Shown here one piece after another: positions 4,280 to 26,067 of a stretch of DNA of 32,000 nt. Below the pieces are notes generated by a model. It did no database searches, had not been told where the DNA came from, and saw only the letters and a program-made list of their open reading frames with translations. The DNA comes from Acaryochloris marina S15 (GTDB lineage: Bacteria > Cyanobacteriota > Cyanobacteriia > Thermosynechococcales > Thermosynechococcaceae), in contig NZ_CP064923.1 in NCBI RefSeq assembly GCF_018336915.1, positions 3,180,001 through 3,212,000 of the forward strand, written 5' to 3'. Numbering within the stretch: the first letter of the stretch is position 1; the number at the start of each line of letters is the position of its first letter. A program made the translations under genes and the position numbers.

Positions 4280-4417
4280 TTAATTATTGGTATTTTAATT
4301 TAGATTAGAGAGCTGGTATAAATAGCAGTTAATGGCAACTTTATTTCCATCTCCAATATTAGCTTTTCTGAAAAGATTTCTTAAATCAAAGTGCGTAAGC
4401 ACAGTTGCTATTCCAAA

Positions 4418-5632: not shown

Positions 5633-5693
5633 TAAATAATATGGAAAATAATTTTTTTAGCAATTGAAAAGCTATATTTCTAGATTTCTGTTG

Positions 5694-6257: not shown

Positions 6258-7403
6258 TTATCTTACAATCTTTTGATTAATAACTTTAGCCTTTTGATCA
6301 AAAACACTTTCCCAAGAAAAATCATTAGAAATTTTTCTGTATAGAGATTCACCTTTAGAGAAATAATCAGCAGGTTGCTCGGTGATCGCCATTAGTATTT
6401 TTGCTAGACCAAGCGAATCATCGATTTCAAAAAATTCTACTTCTGAAGTATCAAACCAATAGTCAAAATTATAAGTCCTTGGAACAATAGAAATACATTT
6501 TGATGCACCGTAATCGAATAATTTCATTTGAGACGTATAGGGAGGAACACCAGGAATTACTCCGACATGCATCATCTTTAATATATCTGCTAATTCATTA
6601 CGATCCAGAAAACCATGATCAATGACTTCAATATGGCTCTCTAACTCATTTTTTATAGTGTCAAAACCAGTGCCAAAAAGATTTAGACAAAGGTTCTCTT
6701 TTGTTTCTTTCTCAAGTATCTTAATAGCTTTAATGAGAAGAGATGGTTGATGGTGAGACATAAGTCGAGCAATGAAGGCGATATTAACTTTATCATTTAT
6801 AATCTTCTGGTGATTTGAATAATGATTGATAAAGTTTATCTCTACACCATTTTCAACATTACTCCAGTTTTTAGTAGATAACTGCCAATAATCTCCATAT
6901 GTACCAACAAAGAATACATGTCGAGAACAGGAATATATTTTTTTCTCAATCCATCTATTTAACGGAGTAAGAAGAGATGGATAATATTTTTTTCTTGCTT
7001 CAAACTGTAAGCCATTTGATTCAACAAAACATGGTATCTTTAGAATATTTAGAACAACAGGAAGAAGATCCAGAAAAGATGCCCGGAAGTATACAAAGTC
7101 AACTTTATTCGTACATATTATGGAAGATATTTGAATAGATTTAATTACAGACTTTAAGAGAATTTTGCAATCAGAAAGAGTACCCTTTATCAGGCTTGAC
7201 CTTTTTGAATTTTGAACTATATCATTCTGAGGTGTAGTTTTTAGGCTTTTCTTAATCTTGGATGAAATTAAATATATATCAAAGTATTTATTTAATTCAC
7301 TTAAACCAATATCAATATGTCTGTATGCACCAGAAGTGGGATCTAAACAGCCTGCTTCATTAACAACATAAATACCTTTAGGTCGTTTTTTCCTACTGAT
7401 CAT
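6258..7403 (-). CDS. Putative divergent GT-B-type glycosyltransferase
   Basis: 381 aa. IAFIARLMSHHQPSLLIKAIKIL...LNLFGTGFD and VIPGVPPYTSQMKLFDYGASKCISIV resemble the C-terminal Rossmann half of GT4-like enzymes, but the motifs are degenerate. The family call is tentative. Confidence 0.55.
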   Translation of the reverse strand: MISRKKRPKGIYVVNEAGCLDPTSGAYRHIDIGLSELNKYFDIYLISSKIKKSLKTTPQNDIVQNSKRSSLIKGTLSDCKILLKSVIKSIQISSIICTNKVDFVYFRASFLDLLPVVLNILKIPCFVESNGLQFEARKKYYPSLLTPLNRWIEKKIYSCSRHVFFVGTYGDYWQLSTKNWSNVENGVEINFINHYSNHQKIINDKVNIAFIARLMSHHQPSLLIKAIKILEKETKENLCLNLFGTGFDTIKNELESHIEVIDHGFLDRNELADILKMMHVGVIPGVPPYTSQMKLFDYGASKCISIVPRTYNFDYWFDTSEVEFFEIDDSLGLAKILMAITEQPADYFSKGESLYRKISNDFSWESVFDQKAKVINQKIVR

Positions 7404-7553
7404 ATGATAAAAATATTTTATCTATAAGTCTAACAAGTCTATAAAAGCCACGGATCTTCTAGTAGGGACTAAAGTGCAACTCTAAGTTATGAGTTCTAAA
7501 ATGCATTGGAAAGTTCTTTATCTATTTACTCTGAAGTGTATAGAGTATTAGTC

Positions 7554-7765
7554 CTGACTGCCTGACACATCTCTGAAAGCCTTTTCTTCGTAAGGGTTTG
7601 CACTGTAAGAATAGCAACGCTGCCCCTAAGGCAAGAGAGTTGGTAATACGTTTAGGTTGCGTTTGACGTGTGAACAATGCCAAAAGCTAGCCTTATACAC
7701 CCTGCTATTCAGCATCCAAAAGCTACGTATCTAAAGGCTTTGAGGTACTTATGTCAGGCAGTCAG
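7554..7765. mobile_element. 212-bp MITE-like element with 14-bp perfect terminal inverted repeats and a 9-bp target-site duplication
   Basis: TIR-L is CTGACTGCCTGACA (7554-7567). TIR-R is TGTCAGGCAGTCAG (7752-7765), its exact reverse complement. Flanking direct repeats GTATTAGTC lie at 7545-7553 and 7766-7774. Imperfect subterminal inverted repeats are also present (tgaaagcctttt / rc of taaaggctttga). No ORF inside. Confidence 0.8.
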
Positions 7766-8529
7766 GTATTAGTCTATTTGATTTGTTATCATCATCGTGT
7801 AACCCTTGCCATTAATCTGGTGCGAAAAGCTGAAAGGCTGGTCTAGCGATCAGTCTGCTGTTGAATTGACTGACGCCTTTAAAGGAGAAGGTCAATTCAC
7901 TAACCTTAGACCAAGGATTTTTACTGTGTCCCTGTAATTATCATGCTCTTAGCCTTCAAGATTCCGTTTAAGATGCCAGCAGTGAATCAAGGCATGTCTT
8001 GGGAATCAAGATAGTTCTGTTGTCATCGAACTAGTTACTGGACCCACTATCGATTTCACAGCTAACGGTCTGGCTTTGTTGAATGCTAATTAGCGGTTGT
8101 GTGTCACTATTGCAAAGGATTTCTACAAAAGCATAGCGATTATCTAATTTATGTTGTTTATCAGATAAACATTGCCCTCGTAGATATTTGCGTAAGCGGT
8201 CTGGTATTGAAACGAGTTATTGAATTAAAAAATCACTTTAACATACCAACGATGACTAAATATCCACTGGCACTGCTGTTGTTGGCAACCTTTTTTCATC
8301 TTGATCAGTGTCTGGATTACACTGCTGTGGATGTTTTCAGAGTTATTCGGCGTTGAGGAAGATGAGACTATCAAGACTTATTTCTACCTAAAACACTTTA
8401 GAAGTTTATCCTTAAGGGCGTTGATAGTTTCTTCCTGCCCAAGAGGGAAATTTAATTTTATGTTATCGAACTACAGATGATCTTTGATTATAATCTCGTG
8501 ATAGTCCTAAAATCTTAAAAATCATTAAA

Positions 8530-9744
8530 CTAAATGAGTGCGTTCTCAATAAGAAATTCTGAAAAGCTATTTACAAGTAGCTTAATATCATAGTTTGAGA
8601 CTACATGTTTTCTAGCTGAAATTGAAATTTCTTTTCTAAGATCTTCATTACTTATAACTAGATCTAAATAATCACTAATTTCTTTGATCGCATTATCTCT
8701 ATTATCGGCATCTACAAGAATACCACACTTGCTGTTTTTAACAGACTCTACTGCCCCTCCGTGGTTTCCAGCTATAATTACATTCTCAAAGAAAGATGCT
8801 TCTATAAAACTTATACCAAAACCTTCAAAGTCTTTGTTTAAATTAGAATGATTCGGCATAATAAAAACTGAGCTTAATTCTAGCAAATTAAATTTAGCTT
8901 CGTCTGAAATTTTCCCTAAAAACCGTACTTTTTCATTCAATTCTAATTCATTAACAATTTTTTTGAGATAATCGTATTCCTGGCCCGTTCCTGCAATTAA
9001 ATAAATATAATCATCATTTTCTCTTAATGTTCGTTTTAAAGCTTGTATAGCAATATCTATACCTTTTCTTTTTGTGAGTCTTGAGATTGTAGTAATTAAA
9101 AATTTATTAGTTAGATCTATTTCTAAATCCTTAGATTTTTTTTTCTTTTTGCCTTCTAGGAATTCTATATCAAGGCCTGGATAGAGGATGTAGTCTTTGC
9201 AACTATATTGAATTGAATTATCTTTAAGTAGTTTTTTTGTAGCATGAGAGTTGAATATAATTAGATTTGAGCTTTTGCAGACAAAATCCAAAAAATTTTT
9301 ATTGCTCTTGATCAGATTCAAAATATCGTAACCATGCAAAACTATTGCATACTTTAATTTTAGAAAATGTAGTATCTGGATAACAAGTATAGAATATGTA
9401 TTGCTTATATAAGTGATAATAAATAGATCTTTTGGATTTTTAAGTGATATTTTTAGGATCTCAAAAATAACAAAAAATGCAATATTAATATAGTAAATTG
9501 CAGAGTTTATTTTCTTGAATAAATAAAATGAATCTCCTATTCTTTTTCCAAGAAATCTATCATTTTTGTATTTATTTAAACCTTTCAGGGTAAAAACAGG
9601 AGTTTCTATTTGAAGTACACTTGTAATTACTGTATTTAGTAAATCTAACTTGTTTAACTCTTTTGCAAGTTGGTAGGTATATTCAGCAACCCCACCCAAC
9701 ATAGGCTTATAGTCCGGTGAGAAAATTACAATTTTATTACTCAT
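8530..9744 (-). CDS. Glycosyltransferase family 4 (GT-B)
   Basis: 404 aa. IVIFSPDYKPMLGGVAEYTYQLAKEL, ISRLTKRKGIDIAIQAL and FEGFGISFIEASFFENVIIAGNHGG. Extremely AT-rich (23% GC on line 9361). Confidence 0.8.
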   Translation of the reverse strand: MSNKIVIFSPDYKPMLGGVAEYTYQLAKELNKLDLLNTVITSVLQIETPVFTLKGLNKYKNDRFLGKRIGDSFYLFKKINSAIYYINIAFFVIFEILKISLKNPKDLFIITYISNTYSILVIQILHFLKLKYAIVLHGYDILNLIKSNKNFLDFVCKSSNLIIFNSHATKKLLKDNSIQYSCKDYILYPGLDIEFLEGKKKKKSKDLEIDLTNKFLITTISRLTKRKGIDIAIQALKRTLRENDDYIYLIAGTGQEYDYLKKIVNELELNEKVRFLGKISDEAKFNLLELSSVFIMPNHSNLNKDFEGFGISFIEASFFENVIIAGNHGGAVESVKNSKCGILVDADNRDNAIKEISDYLDLVISNEDLRKEISISARKHVVSNYDIKLLVNSFSEFLIENALI

Positions 9745-10187
9745 TTTTTATTAAATATGCTAACCCAAAATTGCAGCATTAAGGATTTGATGATTGGGGA
9801 AAGTATCTTCCATTTTTCATTAGCGAGACTGGATTTTTAAACTATTAAACTTGAGGCCAAGGATCTTAAATATTAGATATTCAATAGCTTCTAATTCTCT
9901 AAAGAGGCTTTTTTGACATGGTTTAATAGTATTAAAGCTAACCACTCAATAATTCAACAATAAATGAGAAACTTAGTTAAAAAAAGAATATTATGAACGC
10001 AAAAAATTACTTTTTCTGAATCTACTCAGGATTTAACTACTGATAATTATTAAGAACAATAGGAATCACAATACAAACCAACGGATTGGGAGAGAAATGA
10101 ATTCTTTACCCTGACTATCTAAATCAGGGTAGTTGAGTAGCCTCATATAATGTATTTTTTTTAACTAGTCCAGCTTAAGTTAAGATT

Positions 10188-11102
10188 TTAAAGCGAAAAT
10201 CTCTTTAATATTTTTTTGAATTGATTACCCAATATTTCTTTTCTTTCGCAATAAGTAATTCTTCTTGCTATTTCTTCTAGTATTTTTTTTCTTGTACCAG
10301 TGTTTGCATACCTTAGTTTAACTTCTATTGCCTCTGCCTTTGATAAGATTTTATACTTGGGCGAGGTTGTCTTGGCATTATTATGGATCTTTATTTTTGA
10401 TGCAATGATTTCATAGTGATGAAAATTTGTGATTTCAGAAAAACGAAACCATAAATCATAATCCATTTGTAAGTGAAGTGACTCATCTAATTTTCCTGCT
10501 TCAATAAATAAATCATGATTAAAGAATACACCAGCTTGCGGAACATAGTAGCTCCACCAAAAAATATTAGAAAATTTTGTAGAAGGGGGATTAGTTAAAC
10601 AAATAAAATTATTGTCAGGAGTTACCCTCTCTACTGAGCAAGTAATACAACGAATATTTTTTCCTTGTCTAAATTCATTTGCAATATTGGATAGAATATT
10701 AGGACAATAGCAATCATCGCTATTTAGCCAAGCACATATTTTACCTTTAGCTTGATTAAATCCAGAATTAATTGCATGACTTTGACCTTTATCATTTTTG
10801 CTTGTCCAATAAGTAAAAAACTCCTCATATTTATTAATTATTTCAAGTGAATTATCAGTGCTTCCGCCATCCATTAATATATATTCTAAATTCGGATATC
10901 CTTGTAGTAGTACTGAGCGTATTGTCTCTTCAAGAAACTTTCCTTGGTTAAAGCTTGGAGTTATTATGCTAATCTTAGGCCAAGTTAAGCCATCAAGCAT
11001 AATCTCTGGAATGATATTAGATCCCTCTGTCCAAGGCCATCCTTTTTTATTTGGTGGGGGTGGTGGCAAATCTTTTATTGTTAGAAATTTACTAACAGTC
11101 AT
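10188..11102 (-). CDS. Glycosyltransferase family 2 (GT-A)
   Basis: 304 aa. ISIITPSFNQGKFLEETIRSVLLQGYPNLEYILMDGGSTDNS is the classic GT2 N-terminal signature, followed by AWLNSDD (DXD-type). Confidence 0.85.
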   Translation of the reverse strand: MTVSKFLTIKDLPPPPPNKKGWPWTEGSNIIPEIMLDGLTWPKISIITPSFNQGKFLEETIRSVLLQGYPNLEYILMDGGSTDNSLEIINKYEEFFTYWTSKNDKGQSHAINSGFNQAKGKICAWLNSDDCYCPNILSNIANEFRQGKNIRCITCSVERVTPDNNFICLTNPPSTKFSNIFWWSYYVPQAGVFFNHDLFIEAGKLDESLHLQMDYDLWFRFSEITNFHHYEIIASKIKIHNNAKTTSPKYKILSKAEAIEVKLRYANTGTRKKILEEIARRITYCERKEILGNQFKKILKRFSL

Positions 11103-11212
11103 TGGGGTATCTCAGGCCTAACTTATGCATGAAAATTTTAATCAAATAAAATCTTCTATAATAGAGAAAATAAACCAATGATTAAATAGTAAATAGCGAT
11201 AGTTAAGTATTC

Positions 11213-12475
11213 TTATATTGAACTTGAGAGTTGAGTTAACTGATTTGAGTTAGATTTACGGTTGAGTAAAGCTCTATATAAATTTAAATACCTTTTAGCC
11301 TGGAGCTTTGATGAATATTCTTCTAATGCAATTAACCTACAATTTAACCCCATTTCATAGCGTAATTTATCATCTTTAAGTAGCACTTCAATTCCTTTTG
11401 AGAAATCTTCAATATTCTCTTCTTGTGCGAGATATCCTGTAACATTAGGTCTTACCAAATCTTGAACACCTCCAACCCTAAATGATACTGTGGCTGTTCC
11501 ACAAGCCATGCTTTCTTGAAGTACAACTGGTAAGTTATCTGCCCGAGTGGGTAAGAGAAATAAATCCGCAGAGGAATATACTATAGCTTTTATACGGTCA
11601 TTTGTAATATAACCGAGATGGATAGTTTCAATGTCAGTACTTTTATCTAACGCACTATAAGGTTTTCCAAGGGTTATTAGAATGCATTCTTTTTTTAGTT
11701 TTTCAGGCAAAGAGGAAAGAGATTTGATTAATAAATCACCTCCTTTTCTGGGTTCATTTAACTTTACTGCACAAAAAAGTAAAACTTTTTTTTGAAGAGG
11801 TATACCTAGGATACTTCGGGAAAGCTTGTTATCTAATGGTTTGTAAATATCTGTGTCAATACCGTATGGAATATGATGAATCGAGAACTGGTTAAGAATG
11901 CTTTTTTTAGCTTGCTGGGCTAACCATTTACTCGGCGAGACAATTACTAAATCTGAATTTCTATATACCCAATTCTTAAACTTCCATTCCCAGCGGGTAG
12001 TATCTCTTTTGATTGCAGGAATAGTTTCTGGGTATGGACAAGAACCACAGCCATTTTGCCATCTATTGCAGTCAAAGCTATAAGCACAATGCCCAGTAAA
12101 ACTCCACATATCATGAAGTGTAAAGATTGCAGGCTTAGATTTAGTTAGTTTTGGAATTGCCATATAACTAAATCCAGCAAAATGAAGATTATGAAAATTT
12201 AGTAAATCACATTCCTGAAAAAACCTATGTTTAGGGATATCGAAACTACCAAAATAATTTAAATGGTTGAAGCCTAAGCGGGAAGTAAACCTTCCAAGTT
12301 GATTTTCTAACCTATATCGGCGAGGTGATAAATTTACCTCTTCATCATCAGTCTGTAAGTTCCCTACCAAAAGCTTAGAATTTACACCTTGTTTCAACAA
12401 CTCCTTGTGGAGACGATACCCTGCAATTGCAGCTCCACCTGAAATATCCGATTGATTAATATGTAATACTTTCAT
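11213..12475 (-). CDS. Glycosyltransferase family 4 (GT-B) with a Cys-rich N-domain insert
   Basis: 420 aa. MKVLHINQSDISGGAAIAGYRLHKEL, HDMWSFTGHCAYSFDCNRWQNGCGSCP and LPTRADNLPVVLQESMACGTATVSFRVGG. Confidence 0.85.
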   Translation of the reverse strand: MKVLHINQSDISGGAAIAGYRLHKELLKQGVNSKLLVGNLQTDDEEVNLSPRRYRLENQLGRFTSRLGFNHLNYFGSFDIPKHRFFQECDLLNFHNLHFAGFSYMAIPKLTKSKPAIFTLHDMWSFTGHCAYSFDCNRWQNGCGSCPYPETIPAIKRDTTRWEWKFKNWVYRNSDLVIVSPSKWLAQQAKKSILNQFSIHHIPYGIDTDIYKPLDNKLSRSILGIPLQKKVLLFCAVKLNEPRKGGDLLIKSLSSLPEKLKKECILITLGKPYSALDKSTDIETIHLGYITNDRIKAIVYSSADLFLLPTRADNLPVVLQESMACGTATVSFRVGGVQDLVRPNVTGYLAQEENIEDFSKGIEVLLKDDKLRYEMGLNCRLIALEEYSSKLQAKRYLNLYRALLNRKSNSNQLTQLSSSI

Positions 12476-12486
12476 GGGGTTAAATA

Positions 12487-12494
12487 GCGATCGC
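12487..12494. repeat. HIP1 palindrome GCGATCGC (other perfect copies at 30133-30140 and 31570-31577)
   Basis: Exact octamers read directly from the sequence. HIP1 is a highly iterated palindrome characteristic of many cyanobacterial genomes, so it supports the taxonomic guess. Confidence 0.7.
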
Positions 12495-12630
12495 TATGCA
12501 GGTAACTGCTCAACAAACCTTTGATGGGCATTTGCATGTATTTACTGTTGTAGAATTACCAATACCTGATCCATACGATACTGTGGCAAATAAGTGATAC
12601 TCCATTTTTGCTATTCTTTAGCGGAGAAAA

Positions 12631-13390
12631 TCAAGTCTGAGGAGGTTTAATTGCTTCCATGTAGAGGGAGTCAGGTTTGTAAATGTTGCCATCTGCTTCG
12701 GTATCTAGGTTAAAACTGCTCCAACCGGGAATGTAGCTTTCGGTAGCACTACGTTGAGTAATTTGTTCAAATCCACACTCTTTGAGTAAGCGTGCTAGAG
12801 AATAGCGATCGTACATCCATTGATGAATTTCACTGATTTGGCGGAAGCGACCTATGTTTATCGATTGGTGATCTTTTGCACCAAACGGAAATTTAATCAG
12901 GGTTTATCGACGCACATTTGAATCGCACAAAAAACGGAACAAGGGACGTAGCAAGACTTTAAAACATGGATCTATGTTTGAAATAGCTTGACCTTGACTT
13001 TGCCCAACTTCGATGAGTTTTTGGACTTCAAGACTTAGACGCTTCAAAATGAAGGGTTTATTCAGAACCTCAGGTTGAAAAAGGTAGGCTGCCATATCGC
13101 CCCTTGAGTAATTTCTGACCATCTGGTCAAAAAGTTCTAGCAACAACCAATTGTAGTTGTCGGCTACATAGGAATTACTACAAACAGCCTGTTCCAGTCT
13201 CGACCATTTTTGATAACCTTTTGACTCTGGCAGTGGGGACAATCCTAGTTTGTTCTCTTTGCACTGCCGACATTTTAGCTCTTATAGATTAACAGGCCAG
13301 TGCCAGGATATCACGCCTTAACTGATCAGTACTCGTTGTGTATTTAGGTAAGGCCGTAGTGTTGCAATAGGCGAGCAAGAGAGTGGCAAT
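12631..13390 (-). pseudogene. Decayed class I SAM-dependent methyltransferase: 5'-truncated with several in-frame stops
   Basis: Track ORFs 12904-13242 and 12631-12816 are in the same frame. Hand translation across the gap gives ...CDSNVRR*TLIKFPFGAKDHQSINIGRFRQISEIHQWMYDRYSLARLL..., so a single TAA (12904-12906) splits them. The same frame upstream reads ...YLNTQRVLIS*GVISWHWPVNL*ELKCRQ..., with stops at 13318-13320 and 13282-13284. The WMYDRYSL..LL..GF tail and NYNWLLLELFDQMVRN middle look like a methyltransferase family I recall from memory. No SAM-binding motif I region remains before the next gene at 13398. Confidence 0.6.
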
Positions 13391-13397
13391 TACACAA

Positions 13398-14345
13398 CTA
13401 CTCATGGGAAATTATCGACTCAGGTATGATTTTTTCGAATACTTTTCTGAGTAAACGTTTCATAGAGACAGTAATTGATAAAACTCTCGCAGGAAGGAAC
13501 CGTAAGAGGTATTTTTTTGATAAAGCTAACCTCAACATCAGCTTTCCTAACTCCGATTTAGATAGAACTAATTCATTGCCTAATTCTTGTTCTATAATCT
13601 CTCTTTGAACTTTCAAATCGCATTCTGGGAAGCTAAAGAAATTTCCGAATCGAGACTCCCAACTTCGATGAAAATCCGTGTAATCTATATCTTGATAATT
13701 TTGATCAAGTGAATCTGTCGAAAAACGTGGACCCCAAAAAAAGCTCTTCAAACCCATTGCAGATGCGAATAGAAGAGCAGAGGTCATTTGATTTGAAAAA
13801 GCGTAACGCTTACCGTGAACATTGGCTACAAAGCGTTTGAGAAATGCTTTGTCATACAAATCATTGCCATTTGTAACAACTTTAAACCCGTGGCCTCTAA
13901 AGGTATTATCCAGACCTTTTTGCTGGTCGAGATGATACATGCAGACAGTGATAGGGTGATAATTATCTGGCAAATTCTGGAGCATCTCTGCATACAGGTC
14001 AAAATCACATTTCATCTCAATCAGCTTCGATGAATGAGAAGGAAATACAATAGAGCCTTGCTTATTATCTGCTTCAGAATAGTCAAGGAGTTTTAATAGG
14101 TAGAGGAATGGTGCACCAATACTACGCGTCTTTAATGCCCGATATTTTCTTTTATATGTTTCCTCTAAACTTTTCGACCAATACCAATTTTCAGGCGCAT
14201 CATAACGAGCATCATGATCAGTAGCCGTTATTGTCCAACCATGCTGTAATGACATAGGACAAGGCAAATAGGACGGAAACCCCGCATACTCTTTCAGAAT
14301 CTTGCCGATACCGTAATAGGTCACATTGTCATAAAACTCTTGCAT
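13398..14345 (-). CDS. Hypothetical protein; possibly a TagF/KpsS/sialyltransferase-like GT-B-type transferase (unclassified)
   Basis: 315 aa with no family I can name. Loose features are GSIVFPSHSS, NYHPITVCMYHLD (an HP dipeptide) and KRYAFSNQMTSALLFASAMGLKSFFWGP, plus a basic amphipathic C-terminal tail KKYLLRFLPARVLSITVSMKRLLRKVFEKI. It lies 49 nt downstream of the neuB-like gene. Confidence 0.35.
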   Translation of the reverse strand: MQEFYDNVTYYGIGKILKEYAGFPSYLPCPMSLQHGWTITATDHDARYDAPENWYWSKSLEETYKRKYRALKTRSIGAPFLYLLKLLDYSEADNKQGSIVFPSHSSKLIEMKCDFDLYAEMLQNLPDNYHPITVCMYHLDQQKGLDNTFRGHGFKVVTNGNDLYDKAFLKRFVANVHGKRYAFSNQMTSALLFASAMGLKSFFWGPRFSTDSLDQNYQDIDYTDFHRSWESRFGNFFSFPECDLKVQREIIEQELGNELVLSKSELGKLMLRLALSKKYLLRFLPARVLSITVSMKRLLRKVFEKIIPESIISHE

Positions 14346-14394: not shown

Positions 14395-16644
14395 CTAAAA
14401 GCTGTACGATTCCAATCTTCTCAGTGAAATCCAGAACCCTTCGCCCTCATTTTTATGTCCCTGCCATATCTCCGGAATGAAGGAGGCATTCGGGGCGAAT
14501 TGGAGTAAATATTCTTGCAAGGCAAGGAAATCCATTTCACCTTCTCCAATTTGCAAGCCTTCTCCATCCGACCCAGCCGCATCTGCAATATGCAAATGGG
14601 TCGTATGTGGTCCCACTTGCCGAACAAATTCCATGAAGGATAGCTTGTGTTGGTTGCAAGCTAGCTTGGAATGGGAGACATCTAGACAAACACGATATCC
14701 ATGCTGAGCACAGAATGCGGTAATGTCGTGAGCATCGACAAATAAGTTGTGATATCGCTGTCCACCAAAGTGCCATGGGAAAGGTGGCATTGTCTGCGGG
14801 ATGATTTCAACTCCTTCCGCATCAATGGTAGATAAACTATCGAGCAGTATCTGATACAGTTTCTCTAGTTTCGATCGAGGCAGGGGAGCATCGATCGTGA
14901 AGCCTCCAATATTAGTGACAATACAAGGGCGCTGGGCGCGCTTAAAATAGGGCTTCAGTTCACGCGTAATTTCGACGACTCGCTGCAACTCATGAATGGA
15001 TCGTTGTCGATAACTCTCGTCTTCCGAGCATAAGTCAAGCGTATGATCTCTGGCAAATAGCTCAGGACTATGCACAACCAGATCGAGGTCATAGACTTGG
15101 TCGAAGTATTGATGTAGGTCTTCCTCCATGTCTTTGTAGCTCAGGTGGAATTCCAGTAGGTCGGGGTTGGTTTTTTCGAGTATGTTTTTGAAGTCGTGAT
15201 AGCGCACTGGCAAGCCCCAGGGGCGATCGAACTTGTAGTGTTTGGGTTGCACACGATCGTGCTCTAAATCGCTTGGGTAAAAGAAATCACCAGCCTTGAG
15301 ATCACGTTTTGCCTTTTGGCCAATCAACTCATCTTTGCGGTTGGGTTGTAAACCTTTTCCAGGGCTTTTGACTTCCAGCATTCCGGCTGTGATGACCTGC
15401 CCTATCTGGAGATTACAGTTGATGATTAAACTTTTGGCCAAGGTTTCTCGATTCATCAATTCACCCTGACTCAGTCGGCGTTCACTGCTGCTGCCGAGCG
15501 CTGACTCGATCTGACGAATGCCCTGCACCATCGTTTGAAATTCATCGGGCAACAAACTAACCTTATGGTCATTGCCTTCCATAAATTTATCAATCGTGAA
15601 GTGTTTTTCAATCACCTTGGCGCCTTTAGCCACGGCAGCAACTGAAACATGAATATCACGTTCATGGCCTGAATATCCCACGGGGCAATCACCAATTTCT
15701 TTGAGACGTTCCAGGTAGTTGAGATTAACATCTTTAAAGGGCGCTGGGTAAGTAGAGTTGCAATGCAGCAATACATACATCGCACCGAGCTGTTGCAATA
15801 GCCGGACAGATTCGGCAATCTCGGCTTCTGTAGACATCCCCGTCGAGCAAATGAGTGGCTTACCGGTCTTAGCTATCGCTCTGAGTAAATCATGGTTGGT
15901 CAGATCGGCTGAGGCCACTTTATAGCCTGGCATACCATAGTCTTCCAGTATTCCAAGACTTTTTAAATCCCAAGGGGTGCAGAGCGGCAGGATTCCTTGG
16001 GATTTGCAATAGTCGAATACTTCCAGCATTGCCTCAGGGGAAAGCTGAAAGCGTGATAGCAAATCGAGGGTGTACTGTGAACCAAGGTCCTCGCTCGCAT
16101 CATTAGCGTTACCAGCATTACGGTAGAGGGCTTTCATACTACGCAGTTGGAACTTAGCGCAGTCAGCACCCGCTTCAACGGCTAGATCCACCAGTTTCTT
16201 GGCCATATCTAGGTTGCCGTTATGATTGTTACCGATTTCCGCAATGATGAAGGTAGGTGAGGTCGCATCAATTTTGAAGTCACCAATCTGGACACCATCG
16301 GAGCGTTTGCGGGCGACGGCGACAAGGTGACCAGCAGCGTCTACCAGTGGAATAAACTCGACTTCGGCGGAAAATGCCGCCAAGATCTGAGCGGGGGCGG
16401 CATCGGCTGGAACGGACTTATAGTTTTTATTCGAAACCTGATAAACGGATTGATTTAGATCAATATTGTCTTGACTGACTAACCAACGGCGAAAGTCACC
16501 GTCGGTCATAATCCCTTCTAGCGCGCCGGACTCGGTGACGGAAAAGATAATACGACTTTTGTTGTCACTGATTTTCTTGAGCGCGTTAAGAACACTATCT
16601 TCAGCAAAAACGATGTATTTGGCAACGTTTCTGTCAATCAGCAT
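14395..16644 (-). CDS. neuB: Multi-domain nonulosonic-acid synthase: CBS pair + NeuB-type PEP-condensing domain + SAF + C-terminal xylose-isomerase-like TIM-barrel domain
   Basis: 749 aa. aa 1-112 is CBS-like (GALEGIMTDGDFRRWL; FIPLVDAAGHLVAVARK). aa 128-385 is the NeuB core (FIIAEIGNNHNGNLDMAKKLVDLAVEAGADCAKFQ; YKVASADLTNHDLL; LLHCNSTYPAP; GYSGHE). aa 400-460 is SAF-like (LKAGDFFYPSDLE). aa 475-749 is sugar-phosphate isomerase/epimerase-like (VHSPELF...; LDVSHSKL...; HLHIADAAGSDGEGLQIGEGEMDF). Its ATG overlaps the neuA-like stop by 11 nt. Confidence 0.8.
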   Translation of the reverse strand: MLIDRNVAKYIVFAEDSVLNALKKISDNKSRIIFSVTESGALEGIMTDGDFRRWLVSQDNIDLNQSVYQVSNKNYKSVPADAAPAQILAAFSAEVEFIPLVDAAGHLVAVARKRSDGVQIGDFKIDATSPTFIIAEIGNNHNGNLDMAKKLVDLAVEAGADCAKFQLRSMKALYRNAGNANDASEDLGSQYTLDLLSRFQLSPEAMLEVFDYCKSQGILPLCTPWDLKSLGILEDYGMPGYKVASADLTNHDLLRAIAKTGKPLICSTGMSTEAEIAESVRLLQQLGAMYVLLHCNSTYPAPFKDVNLNYLERLKEIGDCPVGYSGHERDIHVSVAAVAKGAKVIEKHFTIDKFMEGNDHKVSLLPDEFQTMVQGIRQIESALGSSSERRLSQGELMNRETLAKSLIINCNLQIGQVITAGMLEVKSPGKGLQPNRKDELIGQKAKRDLKAGDFFYPSDLEHDRVQPKHYKFDRPWGLPVRYHDFKNILEKTNPDLLEFHLSYKDMEEDLHQYFDQVYDLDLVVHSPELFARDHTLDLCSEDESYRQRSIHELQRVVEITRELKPYFKRAQRPCIVTNIGGFTIDAPLPRSKLEKLYQILLDSLSTIDAEGVEIIPQTMPPFPWHFGGQRYHNLFVDAHDITAFCAQHGYRVCLDVSHSKLACNQHKLSFMEFVRQVGPHTTHLHIADAAGSDGEGLQIGEGEMDFLALQEYLLQFAPNASFIPEIWQGHKNEGEGFWISLRRLESYSF

Positions 16645-17347
16645 GGGACACCACCTGTTGCTTGAGCAAGAATTCAGCGATTTCGAAGTCTAAAGGAGAA
16701 TCAATTTCGTGAGCCGCAGCCTCACTCATCGGGAAAAGCGATATTTTACCGCCTAAGCGATTGCCGAGTTCTTTCAAGACCCAAGGCTTAAAAATATAGA
16801 TTGAACCATTTTCAACATACTGCGGATTCATGTCTTGCCGGCGAGGGCGATGGCGATAGTCGTAGTTGATGGCCTTAGCCACACCATTAGCTTCTTCCCA
16901 GAGAAAACGATGCGAGGGGGAAACTGATACGAGAGAATCAGCATCTTCTGACTGAAGTTTTTGGATAGCCCGATCGATGTCAATCCCAGTGCGAATTGGT
17001 GAAGTACACTGGAGGAAAATGACCAAATCAGGCTTAACTAAAGATTCTTCGATGACACTAAGTGAGTGAATCAAGGCAGATTCCGAAGATGCCGTATCAC
17101 TTGCCAAGTAATCAGGGCGCTGGATAGTATTAACGCCATATTCCTGAGAAATAGCTGCAATCTCAATATCATCAGTCGAAACATAAACTTGTCCAGCAAG
17201 GTTAGACTCGAGAGCATCGAGTATACTGTGGGCAATCAAAGGCTTCTTATCCAGTAAGTTAACGTTTTTTCGGGGAACCCCTTTAGAACCTCCACGAGCT
17301 GGAATGACTACGATATTTCCCCGGAATTTAAAATTGGGCAAGTGCAT
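16634..17347 (-). CDS. neuA: Acylneuraminate (CMP-nonulosonate) cytidylyltransferase
   Basis: 237 aa. VVIPARGGSKGVPRKNVNLLDKKPLIAHSI is the NeuA/CMP-sugar synthetase N-terminal motif, followed by FLQCTSPIR. Translationally coupled to the neuB-like gene. Confidence 0.85.
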   Translation of the reverse strand: MHLPNFKFRGNIVVIPARGGSKGVPRKNVNLLDKKPLIAHSILDALESNLAGQVYVSTDDIEIAAISQEYGVNTIQRPDYLASDTASSESALIHSLSVIEESLVKPDLVIFLQCTSPIRTGIDIDRAIQKLQSEDADSLVSVSPSHRFLWEEANGVAKAINYDYRHRPRRQDMNPQYVENGSIYIFKPWVLKELGNRLGGKISLFPMSEAAAHEIDSPLDFEIAEFLLKQQVVSHAD

Positions 17348-17373: not shown

Positions 17374-19437
17374 TTACAAAATTTTGAGAATTTTCTTGAT
17401 ATCAGCCAGATTTCTCAATGTAATTTCCCATAACCCTTCTTGAGCACGCTTAACTTGATCTTCTATCTCATCAATCTTTTGTCCAATGCTAGTCATATCC
17501 GTGACCAGAGTAGACCGCAAGTCTTCACCTTGAATTTCAGCGCCCCATTCTTGATGATGAATATCTTCCAAGAAGAAGCGTAGCTTATCGTGACTAATCA
17601 AACTATAAATTGCTTTTCCAAGTCCAAAGGGAATCATTTGAGCATGGCCTCTCATCCCGAAAGCCAAAGATATTTTACGATATTCACGAATAATCACATC
17701 TGGTGGTGCACGATGGAGATTAATTTGTTCAAGTTCAAGTCCGCGAGCTCTGAACCATGCATAAGCTTCAGCATCTGTCCGCATATGCATGAACATTTTT
17801 GGACACCACCCCTTGTTCTTTAATTCCAAAAGTGCATCAGCTACTGACCACAGAATTTCATCTTCGCGCTTGCCAAACCTAAGGTGGTGCCTATCGAACG
17901 CGATATTTACAGCAATTACATTACCCGGCTCTCTGTCATGAGTTTCCACCTTGGGATAAAATTTTTGCAGGAATGTGGTCGCACATGGTTGAAAGGTAAT
18001 CTTCGAATGCAGCTCTGGTGGAAGATATTGCTTAAGAGCTTCCATACTTCCTCGATTCCGAATCCCAAAAAAGGCACTTTTCCGAACCAGTTTTTCTACA
18101 CTTTCTCTGAATTTAGGTGAGAATTCAGGCTGACCTCTGAAGCGGTTGTAACCAACGGCAAACACAATAATTGGCACTTGAATTTTCTCTAACAGTTCGA
18201 TAGGGCAAGCCCATTGCCATCCAGACAATTCATTAAGGTTAGAGTCAGAAAGGAAAAGGCCTCCACCGCCAATTAGAACAGCATCTTGCGTATTGATTAT
18301 ATCAATGGTTTGTTCCGTAACTTTTCCTCTTAAGGGAATCAGCTCAAACTGAGTTGGCGATACATATTGCTGGAATAGCCACCTAATAGCAGGAAATAAA
18401 AGCGTATCCCCAGCATTATCATTAGCGTGTAAGCCAATATGAGCAATTTTAAGTCGAATATTCTCCGTCTCTACTGGTGTAACCGCAACATTTTCAGCAT
18501 TACATAGATCTTGGGGTGTCTTATCACGCCAGGACTTCAATTGATTCTTTAGTCGACGCTTAGCTGCTACAAGGTATTGCTTAGCAGTTCGAGATCTTTT
18601 GCTCGAACTGATATCATTTGCATCAACTACTATTTTCTTAATTCGTCGTGGATCATCCGACAGGGTAGATTGCAATGCTTTAGCTTTCTTTTGCGCTATA
18701 ATCCATAGCCCATTTCCATGCCATCCACTCTCTATTGGCTCAAAACCATTTTTGAGCATGAATGATCTTAAAACCGTTTCAGAAAATGTGTTGATGTGAA
18801 CATCCCAGAAGAAGAAATCTATACTTTCTCCATACCAACGATCAATACTTGGACACTCTATATAGAGCAAACCATCATTCTGCAACAGATCATAAATTCT
18901 ACTTAGAAAGGAATTTGGATCTGGCACATGCTCAATAACATGGAAGCTAGAAATTACATCGAATCTGTCTTCTGAAAGATAGTATTCCAACGAAGTATTC
19001 TCTATTGAAAGACCATACCTCTGCTCAACAACACTTGTATAAACAGAATCCGGCTCTAGCCCGGAGACCTTCCAACCAGCTCCCTTCATCAATCTGAGGA
19101 AGCTGGCTGTGCCACAACCAATCTCTAAGATGTTTTTTTGATCATTAGGGCTATATAATTCTGATTTCAAATGATTTTGCAGCGTTTGAAATCTAGAGAA
19201 TGCCAGTGCTTCACACTGCTTGAACTTCGCGTCATCAGGCTTGTGTAAACTTCTCTCATTGCGGGAGAAACCACCACCTGCGTATAAATTTTCCAATTCA
19301 GTAGCGCTTGGCCTGGGTAGAACAAAAACGAATCCACACTGCTCGCAAATGTAATTTTTGACATTTTTGACATGTCTCCCCTTACCGTAAATAAGACTAC
19401 GCTTATCACTTCCACAGAGCGCGCAATTATATGCCAT
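17374..19437 (-). CDS. Bifunctional fusion: Zn-ribbon + class I SAM methyltransferase (N) and polysaccharide pyruvyl transferase (C)
   Basis: N-terminus is MAYNCALCGS...YICEQCGF (4 Cys), then ILEIGCGTASFLRLMKGAGWKVSGLEPD (SAM motif I) and FDVISSFHVIEHVPDP. The C-half has KIAHIGLHANDNAGDTLLFPAIRWLF, DAVLIGGGGLF and LAFGMRGHAQMIPFGLGKAIYSLISHDK, typical of the CsaB/WcaK-type pyruvyl transferase family. I place the start at ATG 19437, which has GGAG 8 nt upstream. The track start at 19524 would overlap wzt by 50 nt and add a hydrophobic, unsupported extension. Confidence 0.75.
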   Translation of the reverse strand: MAYNCALCGSDKRSLIYGKGRHVKNVKNYICEQCGFVFVLPRPSATELENLYAGGGFSRNERSLHKPDDAKFKQCEALAFSRFQTLQNHLKSELYSPNDQKNILEIGCGTASFLRLMKGAGWKVSGLEPDSVYTSVVEQRYGLSIENTSLEYYLSEDRFDVISSFHVIEHVPDPNSFLSRIYDLLQNDGLLYIECPSIDRWYGESIDFFFWDVHINTFSETVLRSFMLKNGFEPIESGWHGNGLWIIAQKKAKALQSTLSDDPRRIKKIVVDANDISSSKRSRTAKQYLVAAKRRLKNQLKSWRDKTPQDLCNAENVAVTPVETENIRLKIAHIGLHANDNAGDTLLFPAIRWLFQQYVSPTQFELIPLRGKVTEQTIDIINTQDAVLIGGGGLFLSDSNLNELSGWQWACPIELLEKIQVPIIVFAVGYNRFRGQPEFSPKFRESVEKLVRKSAFFGIRNRGSMEALKQYLPPELHSKITFQPCATTFLQKFYPKVETHDREPGNVIAVNIAFDRHHLRFGKREDEILWSVADALLELKNKGWCPKMFMHMRTDAEAYAWFRARGLELEQINLHRAPPDVIIREYRKISLAFGMRGHAQMIPFGLGKAIYSLISHDKLRFFLEDIHHQEWGAEIQGEDLRSTLVTDMTSIGQKIDEIEDQVKRAQEGLWEITLRNLADIKKILKIL

Positions 19438-19474
19438 TTTTAGCTCCAAAAATAATGAGAAAACTACGAGAAGG

Positions 19475-20773
19475 CTAGGCAGAAGAGATATCCCAAGAAT
19501 ATGGCTGATAAAAAGCAGCGCCACTCAGATTGAAAAACGTATCTACGCTAAAATCATATGCTTCTACGAAATCTAAAGTGTTTAGAGCTCCTTGGCGAAC
19601 GACAAGCTTCATCATATAGTTACCAGGTTTGAAGCAGACCTGCGGAAAAATAACAGCTATTTTGTTCATCCCCTTACTCAATTTGATTTCTTTACCATCA
19701 TTTTGGTTGCTAATAAACAAAACTGAGTTTCCAGCGCTTAATTTCTCATAAAAATTAAGCCTCAAATTAATGTTGCTTAAATCAGTTTTCGCGTTACATA
19801 GAATAGATATTCTTGCAGATTCGCCACAATACAAAGTCTCAGAAGAATCATTTCCTTCAGATTTTATTTCAATAGATTCAATGGATAAGGTTGAAGATTT
19901 TTTCAGAAAATCTTCAACCTTATTTGTATTGTGTACAATCCTTCTATCTCCATGCTGCTGAGAATCCATGAAGATAAGATCTCTCTCATACTGAAGCACA
20001 ATTTCTCTAGCTTCTCCAACGTTTAGAAGCTTACCCCGATTTAAGTAAGCCACTTGTTCACAAACTCCCGCAATTGTTTGAGAGTTGTGACTGACCAAAA
20101 TAAATACGGTATCACTGTTTCTTAATTCTCCCAGTTTTTTATGACATTTAGCTTGGAAGCAAATATCACCTACCGCAAGAACCTCATCGACAAGAAGAAT
20201 TTCTGGCTCGGTAAAAATTGCACTGGCAAAGCCTAAACGTGCAGCCATCCCAGAACTATAACTCTGGACAGGCGCATCAATTGCATCCCCAATCTCCGCA
20301 AACGCCACTACCTCCTCAAACCGTTCATCGATCTCCTGTTTCGACAAGCCCAAAATTGCCATATTCACATAAATATTTTCCCGCCCCGTCAAAATTGGGT
20401 TAAACCCCGCCCCCAAGGCAATCAACGGCGCCACCCGTCCATTCACCTCCACCGAACCATGATCTGGCCGGATCAACCCACTAATAATCCGCAACAGCGT
20501 CGTCTTCCCTGCACCATTGGCACCCACCAGCCCCAGCGCTTCCCCCCGCTTTAGCTCAAAGCTCACATTGTTTAACGCCCAAAACTCCCCCTTACGCAGC
20601 TCTACATCTTGCCGCTGTGCGCCAAACACCTCTCCAGCAATATCCTGCACCCCATATAGCAAAGACCGCTTTAAATCACGGCAAAACCGTTTAGAAACAT
20701 TCTTCACGGACAAAACAACGCTGCCATCCTTAGACGACTGATGCATAATAGGCTCTAGATAGGTTTGTGTCAT
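19475..20773 (-). CDS. wzt: Polysaccharide ABC exporter ATP-binding protein (Wzt/KpsT type) with an extra C-terminal domain of about 170 aa
   Basis: Walker A GLVGANGAGKTTLL, signature YSSGMAARLGFA, Walker B ILLVDEVLAVGD. Residues about 265-433 extend beyond the NBD (…IESIEIKSEGNDSSETLYCGESARISILCNA…GNYMMKLVVRQG…), like the carbohydrate-binding Wzt C-domain. The start is either ATG 20773 or the adjacent GTG 20776. Confidence 0.85.
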   Translation of the reverse strand: MTQTYLEPIMHQSSKDGSVVLSVKNVSKRFCRDLKRSLLYGVQDIAGEVFGAQRQDVELRKGEFWALNNVSFELKRGEALGLVGANGAGKTTLLRIISGLIRPDHGSVEVNGRVAPLIALGAGFNPILTGRENIYVNMAILGLSKQEIDERFEEVVAFAEIGDAIDAPVQSYSSGMAARLGFASAIFTEPEILLVDEVLAVGDICFQAKCHKKLGELRNSDTVFILVSHNSQTIAGVCEQVAYLNRGKLLNVGEAREIVLQYERDLIFMDSQQHGDRRIVHNTNKVEDFLKKSSTLSIESIEIKSEGNDSSETLYCGESARISILCNAKTDLSNINLRLNFYEKLSAGNSVLFISNQNDGKEIKLSKGMNKIAVIFPQVCFKPGNYMMKLVVRQGALNTLDFVEAYDFSVDTFFNLSGAAFYQPYSWDISSA

Positions 20774-20792
20774 CACTTAAATAGGGTGAAAG

Positions 20793-21019: not shown

Positions 21020-21880
21020 TTACGAGCTCATCCGCTCCACCATAAATGGCATTGCCAGGCGATACAGCATCCAGCCCAGCAGGAACAGCCCTAAGGCCAG
21101 TCCACTGGCCCACCAAAAGCCTATAACATCCGTCAATACTCCGGTTGTCGCTAGTTCCCGTGTTGTTACCAGCAATGGTGTTACCGGATTTAGCCGCACA
21201 ATGCTCCCAAATAAACCACTTTGCGGCACTTCGTAAATCACTGGTGTCAGCAGCAGCCAAGGTGCCACAATCATCGGTAATACCTTCTGCACATCTCCAT
21301 ACAGCGCCCCCAGTGGCGCTAACACCAAGCCAATCCCTGTCCCCAGCATCACCAGATGCACCAGCGCTACTGGCACCAACAGCACCGCCCAAGTCACTGG
21401 CATCTGAAACCAAACAAATAGACCCACAATCAAAATCAGCTTGATACCAAAGTTAAACGCCACCTCCCCCAGTTTCGCCAGCACCAATGCCTCACGCGGG
21501 AAATTGATTTTCGCCAACATCGCCTTTGCTGCATTGACTGCCATAATTGGCCCATTCAGCGCCTCTACAAAGGTCTGCCAAAGGGCCATACTGAACATGA
21601 CATAGGCCGGGTAGGGCAACTCCGTTTCACCCAGGTTCACTACCCCCGTATTGCGAGCCATAACCAATCCAAACGCTGTCACCACTGGCGGCATAAAAGC
21701 CCAGAAAATTCCCAGTAAAGACTGCCGATATTGAGCGCTGATATCCCGCACCAACAATCGCCAAGCCAGTTCCCGAGAAGCCAGCAAGTCACGGCCCATT
21801 TCCTGCAACATTTGCAGCGGGTGACGAATGCGGCTTTCAGGTGTGTAGATCACTCGCTTAGGAGCATGATATTGATTCAT
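21020..21880 (-). CDS. wzm: Polysaccharide ABC exporter permease (ABC-2 type, Wzm/KpsM)
   Basis: 286 aa. LAWRLLVRDISAQYRQSLLGIFWAFMPPVV is the ABC-2 N-terminal motif, followed by about 6 hydrophobic segments. It sits next to the wzt-type ATPase. GC-rich (about 60% on sampled lines). Confidence 0.85.
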   Translation of the reverse strand: MNQYHAPKRVIYTPESRIRHPLQMLQEMGRDLLASRELAWRLLVRDISAQYRQSLLGIFWAFMPPVVTAFGLVMARNTGVVNLGETELPYPAYVMFSMALWQTFVEALNGPIMAVNAAKAMLAKINFPREALVLAKLGEVAFNFGIKLILIVGLFVWFQMPVTWAVLLVPVALVHLVMLGTGIGLVLAPLGALYGDVQKVLPMIVAPWLLLTPVIYEVPQSGLFGSIVRLNPVTPLLVTTRELATTGVLTDVIGFWWASGLALGLFLLGWMLYRLAMPFMVERMSS

Positions 21881-26033: not shown

Positions 26034-26067
26034 GATTTCATAACTCCTTCGTTCGTCAAACACCTTG

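Follow-up and report, generated by a model that had tools for sequence, protein, structure and literature searches.

This study concerns one gene in a stretch of 32,000 nucleotides from Acaryochloris marina S15 (contig NZ_CP064923.1, positions 3,180,001 to 3,212,000 of the forward strand), the whole of which is referred to here as the window. The gene is a single unbroken open reading frame (ORF) of 749 codons with an ATG start, at 14395..16644 on the minus strand, and its product is predicted to be a synthase of the nonulosonic acid type, an assignment firmly supported by its sequence. The protein of 749 amino acids (aa) is 100% identical to an NCBI entry for Acaryochloris marina named 'N-acetylneuraminate synthase family protein'. 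The gene and its modules are listed below.

14395..16644, minus strand: fused gene, CBS pair-NeuB-SAF-TIM barrel, 749 aa (ORF, Pfam and AlphaFold2 (AF2) model)
16309..16644, minus strand: N-terminal CBS pair, aa 1-112, a presumed ligand-sensing module (Pfam, family members, AF2)
15469..16254, minus strand: NeuB catalytic domain, aa 131-392, condensing phosphoenolpyruvate (PEP) with an aldose (Pfam, PDB matches, conserved residues)
15262..15414, minus strand: SAF (antifreeze-like) domain, aa 411-461 (Pfam, 1.2e-9)
14398..15222, minus strand: C-terminal xylose-isomerase-like TIM barrel, aa 475-749 (Pfam, AF2, Foldseek, hhalign)

All four modules had been proposed in a sequence-only reading of this DNA, and all four were borne out. 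Pfam matched NeuB over aa 151-386 (6e-86, 288 bits against a cutoff of 22.1) and SAF at 39 bits against a cutoff of 21, so that the protein carries the PF03102 and SAF combination by which the family is recognized. The AP_endonuc_2 family (PF01261) was matched over aa 499-733 (2.5e-18, 67.2 bits against a cutoff of 31.1). The AF2 model of the entire protein had a mean predicted local distance difference test (pLDDT) score of 92.3 and a predicted template modeling score of 0.78, and the last 280 residues, modeled with an alignment of 85 sequences, formed a (beta/alpha)8 barrel with a pLDDT of 97.7. The CBS match in the protein itself (aa 11-56) reached 23.3 bits, 0.7 bits below the Pfam cutoff of 24. 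However, CBS was matched in 42 of 50 diverse family members (best 3e-10), and aa 1-112 form two beta-alpha-beta-beta-alpha units in the full-length model. By this topology and the matches in its homologues the N-terminus is a tandem CBS (Bateman) module, and the CBS pair is real. The best NCBIfam matches for aa 1-110 (1.8e-5, far under the cutoffs) were the KpsF/GutQ arabinose-5-phosphate isomerases, which combine a SIS domain with a CBS pair. Their catalytic domains are unrelated to the fused synthase, although in both cases a CBS pair is attached to an enzyme of ulosonic acid precursors or synthesis.

The sequence-only reading had described one uninterrupted ORF and had allowed that it might prove to be two genes; the full-length homologues in 80 loci rule out that alternative. 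An artefactual fusion, a frameshift or a sequencing error was likewise ruled out: among the top 150 database representatives of the barrel, 46 have a length of 700 aa or more, and the 80 loci match residues 1 to about 747. The architecture, at 747-757 aa, occurs in 80 species loci and in many database clusters.

A survey of the architecture and its gene neighborhoods, which had been suggested as a check, showed it to be common. In a scan of one genome per species a relative was encoded in 494 genomes. For the work on neighbors and architecture 80 loci were kept from these carrier genomes, and ORFs were called and clustered in 79 of them. Nearly all of the 80 align with the A. marina protein over residues 1 to about 747. 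The cyanobacterial orders carry the full architecture in near-universal form, with 68-84% identity to the A. marina protein. The best 120 database clusters were all 747-763 aa long with the identical domain set and 72-84% identity, and their sources include Scytonema, Nodularia, Dolichospermum, Moorena, Crocosphaera, Stanieria and Geminocystis. Carriers outside the cyanobacteria (58-68% identity) include Bacillaceae, Rhizobium, Sphingomonas, Desulfobulbaceae, Mycolicibacterium, Leptospira interrogans and L. borgpetersenii. The architecture had been thought unusual, and this did not hold: besides its presence in 494 species genomes and its near-universal form in cyanobacterial orders, it was published in 2012 (PMC3438082), which rules out a rare or unreported arrangement. 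Four homologues were called as ORFs of 945-1073 aa (L045 1203..4040, L057 2839..5790, L062 1045..4266 and L063 8793..12014), with 200-320 extra N-terminal residues that have no Pfam match, in loci where no separate neuA is present either. These extra residues may be artefacts of ORF calling in high-GC DNA or may represent an extra domain.

The barrel was also searched alone against 1.84 billion cluster representatives, which gave 846 clusters at E<=1e-3. A NeuB domain is present in 92 of the best 150 of these, and 46 reach 700 aa or more; the rest are short and are either fragments or stand-alone genes. Two stand-alone barrels that could be placed lie directly after a stand-alone NeuB+SAF gene, one of them overlapping it, and upstream of a third is a truncated gene that is probably NeuB. 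The barrel family was rarely encountered except in fusion with this clade of NeuB or immediately downstream of it. Because its best matches contain or directly follow NeuB, it is tied to NeuB in fused or split form, and the conclusion that the barrel is functionally inseparable from this NeuB clade is firmly supported.

The type of substrate was assessed from the NeuB-SAF core. Its best PDB sequence matches were PseI (8h2c, 7e-54) and NeuB of Neisseria meningitidis (NmNeuB, 1xuu, 1e-47), both at about 31% identity, and it missed the NCBIfam equivalog cutoffs for NeuB (TIGR03569, 333.6 against 399.65) and PseI (TIGR03586, 245.3 against 340.25). The fold, the catalytic core and the metal and PEP ligands are shared with these two enzymes. 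Residues E136, N140, H141, K164, Q166, K242, S245, S267, H327, E346, H348 and D359 are invariant, and the catalytic residues (the metal-binding His pair, the PEP-binding Lys and Ser, and the N-terminal Glu) align with their NmNeuB equivalents and are unchanged in the whole set. The roles of the catalytic residues in NmNeuB have reportedly been established, and Arg314 is said to be essential in that enzyme.

The core alignment contained 28 diverse fused proteins, 2 split NeuBs, 6 vertebrate N-acetylneuraminate-9-phosphate synthases (NANS), the Kdn-9-phosphate synthase (Kdn9PS) of Prymnesium, NmNeuB, PseI and 12 canonical NeuB/LegI-like synthases taken from the same loci as the fused genes; the Prymnesium sequence came from the supplement of PMC6200933. 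Six positions split the aligned synthases into the fused and phosphosugar enzymes on one side and the free-sugar enzymes on the other.

After the K-x-Q motif (167/168): fused x-R or K-R; phosphosugar K-S/K-R; free-sugar T-[H/Y/F]
Position 247: fused D; phosphosugar D (S in Prymnesium); free-sugar E
Position 326: fused G, rarely S/A; phosphosugar G; free-sugar D
Position 328: fused E or D; phosphosugar E (H in Prymnesium); free-sugar T/S
Position 360: fused H; phosphosugar H; free-sugar variable
NmNeuB Arg314 equivalent: fused S or G; phosphosugar no Arg; free-sugar R (K in one)

All 28 fused proteins and both split NeuBs side with the phosphosugar enzymes here. Free-sugar NeuB and PseI thus differ from the fused core at six substrate-side positions, including Arg314. 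The A. marina protein has Ser428 in its SAF domain at the Arg314 position, reading 'SPG' where the free-sugar enzymes read 'RPG'. A phylogeny of the core had also been proposed as a check. The neighbor-joining tree (261 columns, 200 bootstraps) grouped the fused and split cores with NANS and Kdn9PS, apart from NmNeuB, PseI and the canonical NeuB/LegI-like synthases, with 64% bootstrap support. Signature and tree together are suggestive, not decisive, of a phosphosugar-dependent core. Vertebrate NANS shares with the fused protein the NeuB+SAF core, a K/R after the FQ motif, D247, the SGHE and GxDH motifs, the missing Arg314 equivalent and the side of the tree; it differs in its overall sequence (34% identity) and has neither the CBS pair nor the barrel. 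The Prymnesium synthase shares signature positions at about 30% identity to the fused core, and is without SAF, CBS or barrel.

The C-terminal domain had been read as a xylose-isomerase-like TIM barrel, and structure comparison agrees. Foldseek returned 175 PDB matches at E<=0.001, of which the top 50 all belong to the xylose-isomerase-like superfamily. The best were MJ1311 (3wqo, 'D-tagatose 3-epimerase-like', E 6e-12), endonuclease IV (Endo IV) of M. tuberculosis (5zhz), UlaE (3cqj) and ketose 3-epimerases, with template modeling (TM) scores of 0.6-0.67 (about 0.66 for 3wqo, 5zhz and 3cqj) and 10-21% identity. Profile comparison with hhalign gave E. coli UlaE a probability of 94% and E. coli Nfo 92%. 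NCBIfam matches on the barrel were CbiR (a phosphodiesterase), FrlC, UlaE, Hyi and MbnB/ApyH, all far below their cutoffs. These family matches were tried as an arbiter between phosphoesterase and epimerase and rejected as non-discriminating, the NCBIfam scores being sub-cutoff and the Foldseek TM scores all about 0.6-0.67. A literature search on MJ1311 gave nothing useful for the barrel.

Conservation in the barrel was measured in 85 sequences with 30-53% identity to the query. Thirteen polar residues are invariant or nearly so (R481, D484, E498, H500, D505, H525, D655, H658, H685, D688, E695, E725 and H730), five of them His, and W727 is conserved to the same degree. Most characterized members of the xylose-isomerase-like/AP_endonuc_2 superfamily are sugar isomerases, epimerases or dehydratases, and in ketose 3-epimerases both Glu residues of an E-D-H-E metal site serve as catalytic bases. 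The corresponding site in the A. marina protein is 617-655-685-725 and reads Q617-D655-H685-E725. Position 617 is Gln in 61 of the 85 sequences (72%), the A. marina protein included, and Glu in 24, while the D, the H and the last E are invariant. The two Glu residues of the ketose and sugar-phosphate 3-epimerases (DTE, DPEase, UlaE) are therefore not both present, and a two-Glu 3-epimerase mechanism is unlikely for this protein because the first Glu is replaced by Gln617.

The His, Asp and Glu conservation of the barrel exceeds the E-D-H-E set of UlaE, which shares E498 and the canonical four positions and has no His at 500, 525 or 578. Several ligand positions of Endo IV are matched instead. 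The trinuclear zinc site of that enzyme is said to be formed by H69, H109, E145, D179, H182, H216, D229, H231 and E261. The hhalign alignment pairs positions 578, 617, 655/658 and 685 with Nfo His109, Glu145, Asp179/His182 and His216, respectively, and E725 aligns with E261. The complete nine-ligand site is not present in the A. marina protein, in which the equivalents of H109 and E145 are N578 and Q617. Compared with the known barrels of the fold (MJ1311, Endo IV, UlaE, ketose 3-epimerases and CbiR), the A. marina barrel has the same DxxH, HxxD and final Glu motifs, and it differs in reading Q-D-H-E rather than E-D-H-E, in its extra invariant His, Asp and Glu residues, and in its tie to NeuB.

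Positions 578, 617 and 618 covary perfectly and divide the barrels into two subfamilies. In 61 sequences they read N/S/T-Q-T/S (one has N at the last position), and in 24 they read H-E-N. All forms of about 730 aa or more, the size that includes the CBS pair, are of the N/S/T-Q version, as are some forms of about 600-660 aa and shorter. The H-E-N version is confined to forms of about 630 aa and shorter, including stand-alone barrels. From these residues, the H-E-N subfamily has an Endo IV-like ligand set that is probably multinuclear, and the N/S/T-Q subfamily has exchanged two of these ligands for amides, which suggests that one metal site was lost or changed.

There is firm support for the conclusion that the gene belongs to a polysaccharide locus whose product is exported by an ABC transporter. 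The following genes surround it.

16634..17347, minus strand: neuA-like cytidine monophosphate (CMP)-sugar synthetase, 237 aa (CTP_transf_3, 4e-19)
13398..14345, minus strand: 315-aa protein without a family, directly downstream of the synthase (position; cluster c57)
17374..19524, minus strand: fusion of a class I methyltransferase and a polysaccharide pyruvyl transferase, 716 aa (Methyltransf_23, 5e-22; PS_pyruv_trans, 1e-16)
19475..20776, minus strand: Wzt-type ABC transporter ATPase with a C-terminal glycan-binding domain (ABC_tran, 2.6e-24; Wzt_C, 31.7 bits against a cutoff of 30.4)
21020..21880, minus strand: Wzm-type ABC-2 permease (ABC2_membrane, 3.3e-9)
783..12475, minus strand: glycan assembly genes, comprising six glycosyltransferases of family 4 (GT4), one of family 2 (GT2), a hexapeptide acetyltransferase and a Wzy_C-like membrane protein (Pfam)
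5694..6257: the hexapeptide acetyltransferase (Pfam)
27422..29632: Wzc-like kinase gene
31383..32000: partial short-chain dehydrogenase/reductase (SDR) epimerase/dehydratase at the right edge of the window

The stop codon (TGA) of the neuA-like gene, read directly from the sequence, sits 11 nt inside the synthase ORF, in agreement with the translational coupling claimed earlier. The linkage of synthase and CMP-transferase genes is plain, and the transferase activity is a prediction; against the PseF model the 237-aa protein scored 116 bits, under the cutoff of 205.7. Annotation of the ORFs with Pfam and NCBIfam found no NeuC, DegT aminotransferase or PseB/LegB-type dehydratase in the window, as the sequence-only reading had stated, and no canonical Neu, Leg or Pse cluster in the window or in about 6 kb past its right edge, where only the remainder of the SDR gene, a response regulator and a PAS histidine kinase are found.

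The same arrangement recurs among the relatives. A neuA-like gene is present in 61 of the 79 loci and lies within 3 kb of the synthase in 54. In cyanobacteria the order is Wzm, Wzt, a methyltransferase and/or pyruvyl transferase, NeuA, in some cases a TylF O-methyltransferase, the synthase, a variable gene and then GT2/GT4 genes, with Wzt conserved as an upstream neighbor in 22 loci and Wzm in 21. Most cyanobacterial loci, the window included, are without genes for NeuC, an aminotransferase or a dehydratase. The variable slot after the synthase is occupied by an MptE/Maf-like gene in nine loci and by an alpha-2,8-polysialyltransferase-like gene (PF07388, 1e-60) in six. The unassigned protein of about 315 aa takes this place in the window, Dulcicalothrix and Scytonema, and the cluster of the window's protein is also present in L005 (12276..13235) and L010. 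Pfam and NCBIfam gave no match for the 315-aa protein. A sialyltransferase-family label was rejected, since profile-profile comparison with the MptE-like, polysialyltransferase-like and other occupants of the slot gave a probability of at most 1%. From its position the protein is a candidate transferase, and it may belong to an unrecognized transferase family for CMP-activated acid sugars. The 716-aa methyltransferase-pyruvyl transferase, which may be a chain-terminating or modifying enzyme, is also fused in cyanobacterial loci L011 and L019; in others its halves are separate, always between Wzt and NeuA.

A different order is found in Leptospira, where the synthase is followed by DegT, NeuA, an iron-dependent alcohol dehydrogenase (Fe-ADH) and a radical S-adenosylmethionine (SAM)/SPASM gene, beside a complete legionaminic acid set with its own 344-aa synthase. 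The same four genes follow the synthase in L071 (10001..16221), L078, L056, L073 and L079, which represent Leptospira and several other phyla. The DegT and Fe-ADH pair recalls the oxidase and aminotransferase pair of 8-amino-Kdo synthesis and hints, by analogy, at a terminally aminated nine-carbon acid.

The Leptospira gene is also the one for which a function has been proposed. Ricaldi et al. (2012; PMC3438082) described the fusion in Leptospira interrogans, noted the C-terminal 'endonuclease-like' domain, proposed that the barrel acts as a phosphatase on the 9-phosphate product in an animal-like route to N-acetylneuraminic acid (Neu5Ac), and detected Neu5Ac in L. interrogans serovar Copenhageni; Fouts et al. 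(2016) repeat the proposal. The Leptospira protein, NeuB2/Sas (LA_1613, NP_711794 / YP_002104), is orthologous to the A. marina protein, with 59% identity over residues 1-747 and a 753-aa ORF in L071, and the homology to the L. interrogans and L. borgpetersenii loci is collinear and full-length. Both synthases are paired with a NeuA gene. However, the Leptospira gene lies beside a complete legionaminic acid cluster and DegT, Fe-ADH and radical SAM genes, whereas the Acaryochloris gene lies in a Wzm/Wzt locus without precursor genes. The architecture is thus both common and previously described, while its biochemistry is another matter: no biochemical study of the fusion was found in a literature search that most subscription journals lay outside. 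A survey of nonulosonates in cyanobacteria gives no strain-level data in its main text. Another known system is the Kdn pathway of Bacteroides thetaiotaomicron and Prymnesium parvum, which consists of a Kdn-9-phosphate synthase, a Kdn-9-phosphate phosphatase and a CMP-Kdn synthetase, the Prymnesium synthase being specific for mannose 6-phosphate (Man-6-P) (PMC6200933). Like the route proposed below for A. marina, it takes three steps, starts at Man-6-P and does without genes for hexosamine precursors. In B. thetaiotaomicron the phosphatase is a haloacid dehalogenase (HAD) enzyme, of which the studied loci have no homologue.

We tentatively favor, at a little under even confidence, the reading that the fused gene and its neighbors form a self-contained module, which makes a nonulosonate 9-phosphate from a central hexose 6-phosphate, removes the phosphate with the barrel, activates the sugar with NeuA and delivers it to an ABC-exported glycan. 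The NeuB-SAF core would condense PEP with an aldose 6-phosphate of the Man-6-P or N-acetylmannosamine 6-phosphate (ManNAc-6-P) type, as its signature and tree position indicate and on the model of animal NANS and Kdn-9-phosphate synthases. The fused, metal-dependent barrel would take off the 9-phosphate, as first proposed for the Leptospira orthologue, and the coupled NeuA-like enzyme would form the CMP-sugar. Judging from synteny, the transferase just downstream would add the sugar to the polysaccharide made by the neighboring glycosyltransferases for export by Wzm/Wzt, possibly as a terminal cap that may also be methylated or pyruvylated. A capping role is plausible because the window Wzt has a Wzt_C domain, whose counterpart in E. 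coli O9a recognizes a terminal modification of the chain. A regulatory role for the CBS pair is a reasonable idea; feedback control by a nucleotide or the CMP-sugar, by analogy with other sialic acid pathways, would be a guess.

This reading accounts for the observations in several ways. First, no NeuC, Pse or Leg precursor genes would be needed, because the core would start from a central hexose 6-phosphate. Secondly, a core with the phosphosugar signature would need a partner phosphatase for the 9-phosphate, and the neighborhood encodes none. In NANS-dependent synthesis this step belongs to NANP, a separate HAD enzyme of a fold unrelated to the barrel. No BT1713-type HAD phosphatase was found in about 88 loci, and this, with the Endo IV-like richness of ligands, fits the barrel as the 9-phosphatase. 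Third, the Fe-ADH and aminotransferase of some loci need a free terminal hydroxyl, which fits dephosphorylation by the barrel; the corresponding steps to Kdo8N reportedly act on a free terminal CH2OH.

Several points weigh against it. To our knowledge, no member of the xylose-isomerase-like/AP_endonuc_2 superfamily is a sugar-phosphate monoesterase, and we consider it possible but doubtful that the barrel is the first in the xylose-isomerase/endonuclease IV fold. The A. marina protein has Asn and Gln at two of the Zn1-binding positions of Endo IV. The barrel resembles phosphodiesterases (CbiR, Endo IV) no more closely than epimerases (FrlC, UlaE, MJ1311), and both likenesses are weak; similarity therefore picks no chemistry. 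Only two phosphosugar groups defined by experiment underlie the signature, and the bootstrap support of 64% is modest. Copies in Crocosphaera, Rippkaea and Cyanothece (L001, L018, L023, L025, L026, L028 and L029) lack neuA and glycan genes within 10 kb. Lastly, dedicated 9-phosphatases can be dispensable, as discussed for Prymnesium, which has no dedicated one, so the pathway does not require an obligate fusion (PMC6200933). Genes next to the orphan Crocosphaera and Cyanothece copies, for example those for a chorismate-binding enzyme and a UbiA prenyltransferase, were judged unrelated, and any partner genes of these copies would lie elsewhere.

The strongest rival keeps part of the sequence-only proposal that the barrel supplies or modifies the sugar. 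Here the barrel would act as a sugar-phosphate isomerase or 2-epimerase and supply the synthase, within one polypeptide, with its aldose substrate, such as Man-6-P from fructose 6-phosphate or glucose 6-phosphate, or ManNAc-6-P from N-acetylglucosamine 6-phosphate, and an unlinked, non-specific phosphatase would remove the 9-phosphate. We regard this as unlikely, though still a live option. Epimerases and isomerases of sugars or sugar phosphates make up most of the characterized relatives with this fold, and MJ1311, UlaE and ketose 3-epimerases are among the top Foldseek hits. UlaE is also supported by hhalign (94%) and, with FrlC and hydroxypyruvate isomerase, by weak NCBIfam matches. A supplying barrel would account for the lack of precursor genes and, should the cell have no other source of ManNAc-6-P, for the obligate pairing with a phosphosugar-type NeuB; moreover, Prymnesium has no dedicated phosphatase (PMC6200933). 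However, the first catalytic Glu is Gln in the A. marina protein and in 72% of the family, and UlaE lacks His at family positions 500, 525 and 578. Man-6-P is a common metabolite for which a dedicated supply is not obviously needed, and the phosphatase step would be left without a gene in compact loci that lack a HAD phosphatase. Because of the phosphosugar signature, the lack of a nearby phosphatase and Gln617, a phosphatase role is at least as likely as a supplying one.

A second rival follows the earlier suggestion of a non-canonical nonulosonic acid. In it the barrel would act after condensation, on the nine-carbon acid, as an epimerase, a dehydratase or a multinuclear-metal oxidase. The superfamily does contain dehydratases and hydratases acting beside a keto group (8ro4 and mannonate dehydratase are among the Foldseek matches) as well as multinuclear iron oxidases, and stand-alone barrels match MbnB/ApyH, though only weakly, with E-values above 0.05. 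In addition, many loci carry a TylF O-methyltransferase, Fe-ADH, aminotransferase, radical SAM or carbamoyltransferase gene. We nevertheless consider it improbable: there is no specific likeness to any product-modifying enzyme, the phosphate implied by the NANS-like signature would be left in place, and L. interrogans, which has an orthologue, makes plain Neu5Ac (PMC3438082). The suggestion is kept as a rival, and an ordinary Kdn- or Neu-type acid made by the 'animal-like' route is possible instead.

It is very improbable that the core is a conventional free-sugar synthase fed by NeuC, Pse or Leg genes elsewhere, with the barrel and CBS pair structural or regulatory and non-catalytic: although precursor genes were sought in the window and its right flank and not in the left flank or the rest of the A. 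marina genome, and although non-cyanobacterial loci often have a complete Leg/Neu-type set beside the fused gene, a canonical 340-aa synthase (cluster c9) is also encoded in those loci and makes the fused enzyme unnecessary for the Leg/Neu-type pathway, the fused NeuB lacks equivalents of Arg314, Asp214 and Glu134 of the compared free-sugar enzymes, and thirteen invariant polar residues at 30-53% identity argue for catalysis by the barrel.

That the architecture is annotated and widespread, and that a mechanism was proposed for it in 2012, was already known. New here are the phosphosugar-type residue signature of the fused family's NeuB domain, the strict linkage of NeuB and barrel in fused or split form, and the two covarying barrel subfamilies, of which only the N/S/T-Q type occurs in full-length forms bearing the CBS pair. 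Sialic-acid-like sugars shape the dealings of bacteria with hosts, phages and surfaces, and cyanobacteria are seldom thought of as producers, yet the fused enzyme is highly conserved among them and is also present in Leptospira pathogens. If the phosphosugar route is true, the 'animal-type' pathway would be old and widespread in bacteria, and a well-studied fold would have a new catalytic activity. Should the barrel prove to be the phosphomonoesterase considered doubtful above, hundreds of species, including most cyanobacterial orders, would make Kdn- or Neu-type acids by a single-polypeptide 'animal' route under CBS-mediated control, and these acids would cap or decorate glycans exported by ABC transporters.

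Several other features of the window were recorded. The GC content is 27-34% over the glycosyltransferase-rich 4000..13000, against 40-51% for the synthase, the transporter and the flanking genes, which suggests that part of the glycan locus was horizontally acquired or exchanged. Within the glycosyltransferase run, about 1.1 kb (7403..8530) has no ORF of at least 100 aa on either strand. An IS4/Tn5-like DDE transposase (DDE_Tnp_1 with a Tn5 dimerization domain; 24149..25366, plus strand) lies between the glycan locus and the Wzc-like gene, and is the sole large plus-strand ORF of the window. Two overlapping ORFs, 25536..26093 and 26068..27183, both on the minus strand, have no Pfam match. The 371-aa product of this pair has a signal-like N-terminus, and the 185-aa product is very acidic, with repeated GGxGSDISG-like units and a hydrophobic N-terminus.

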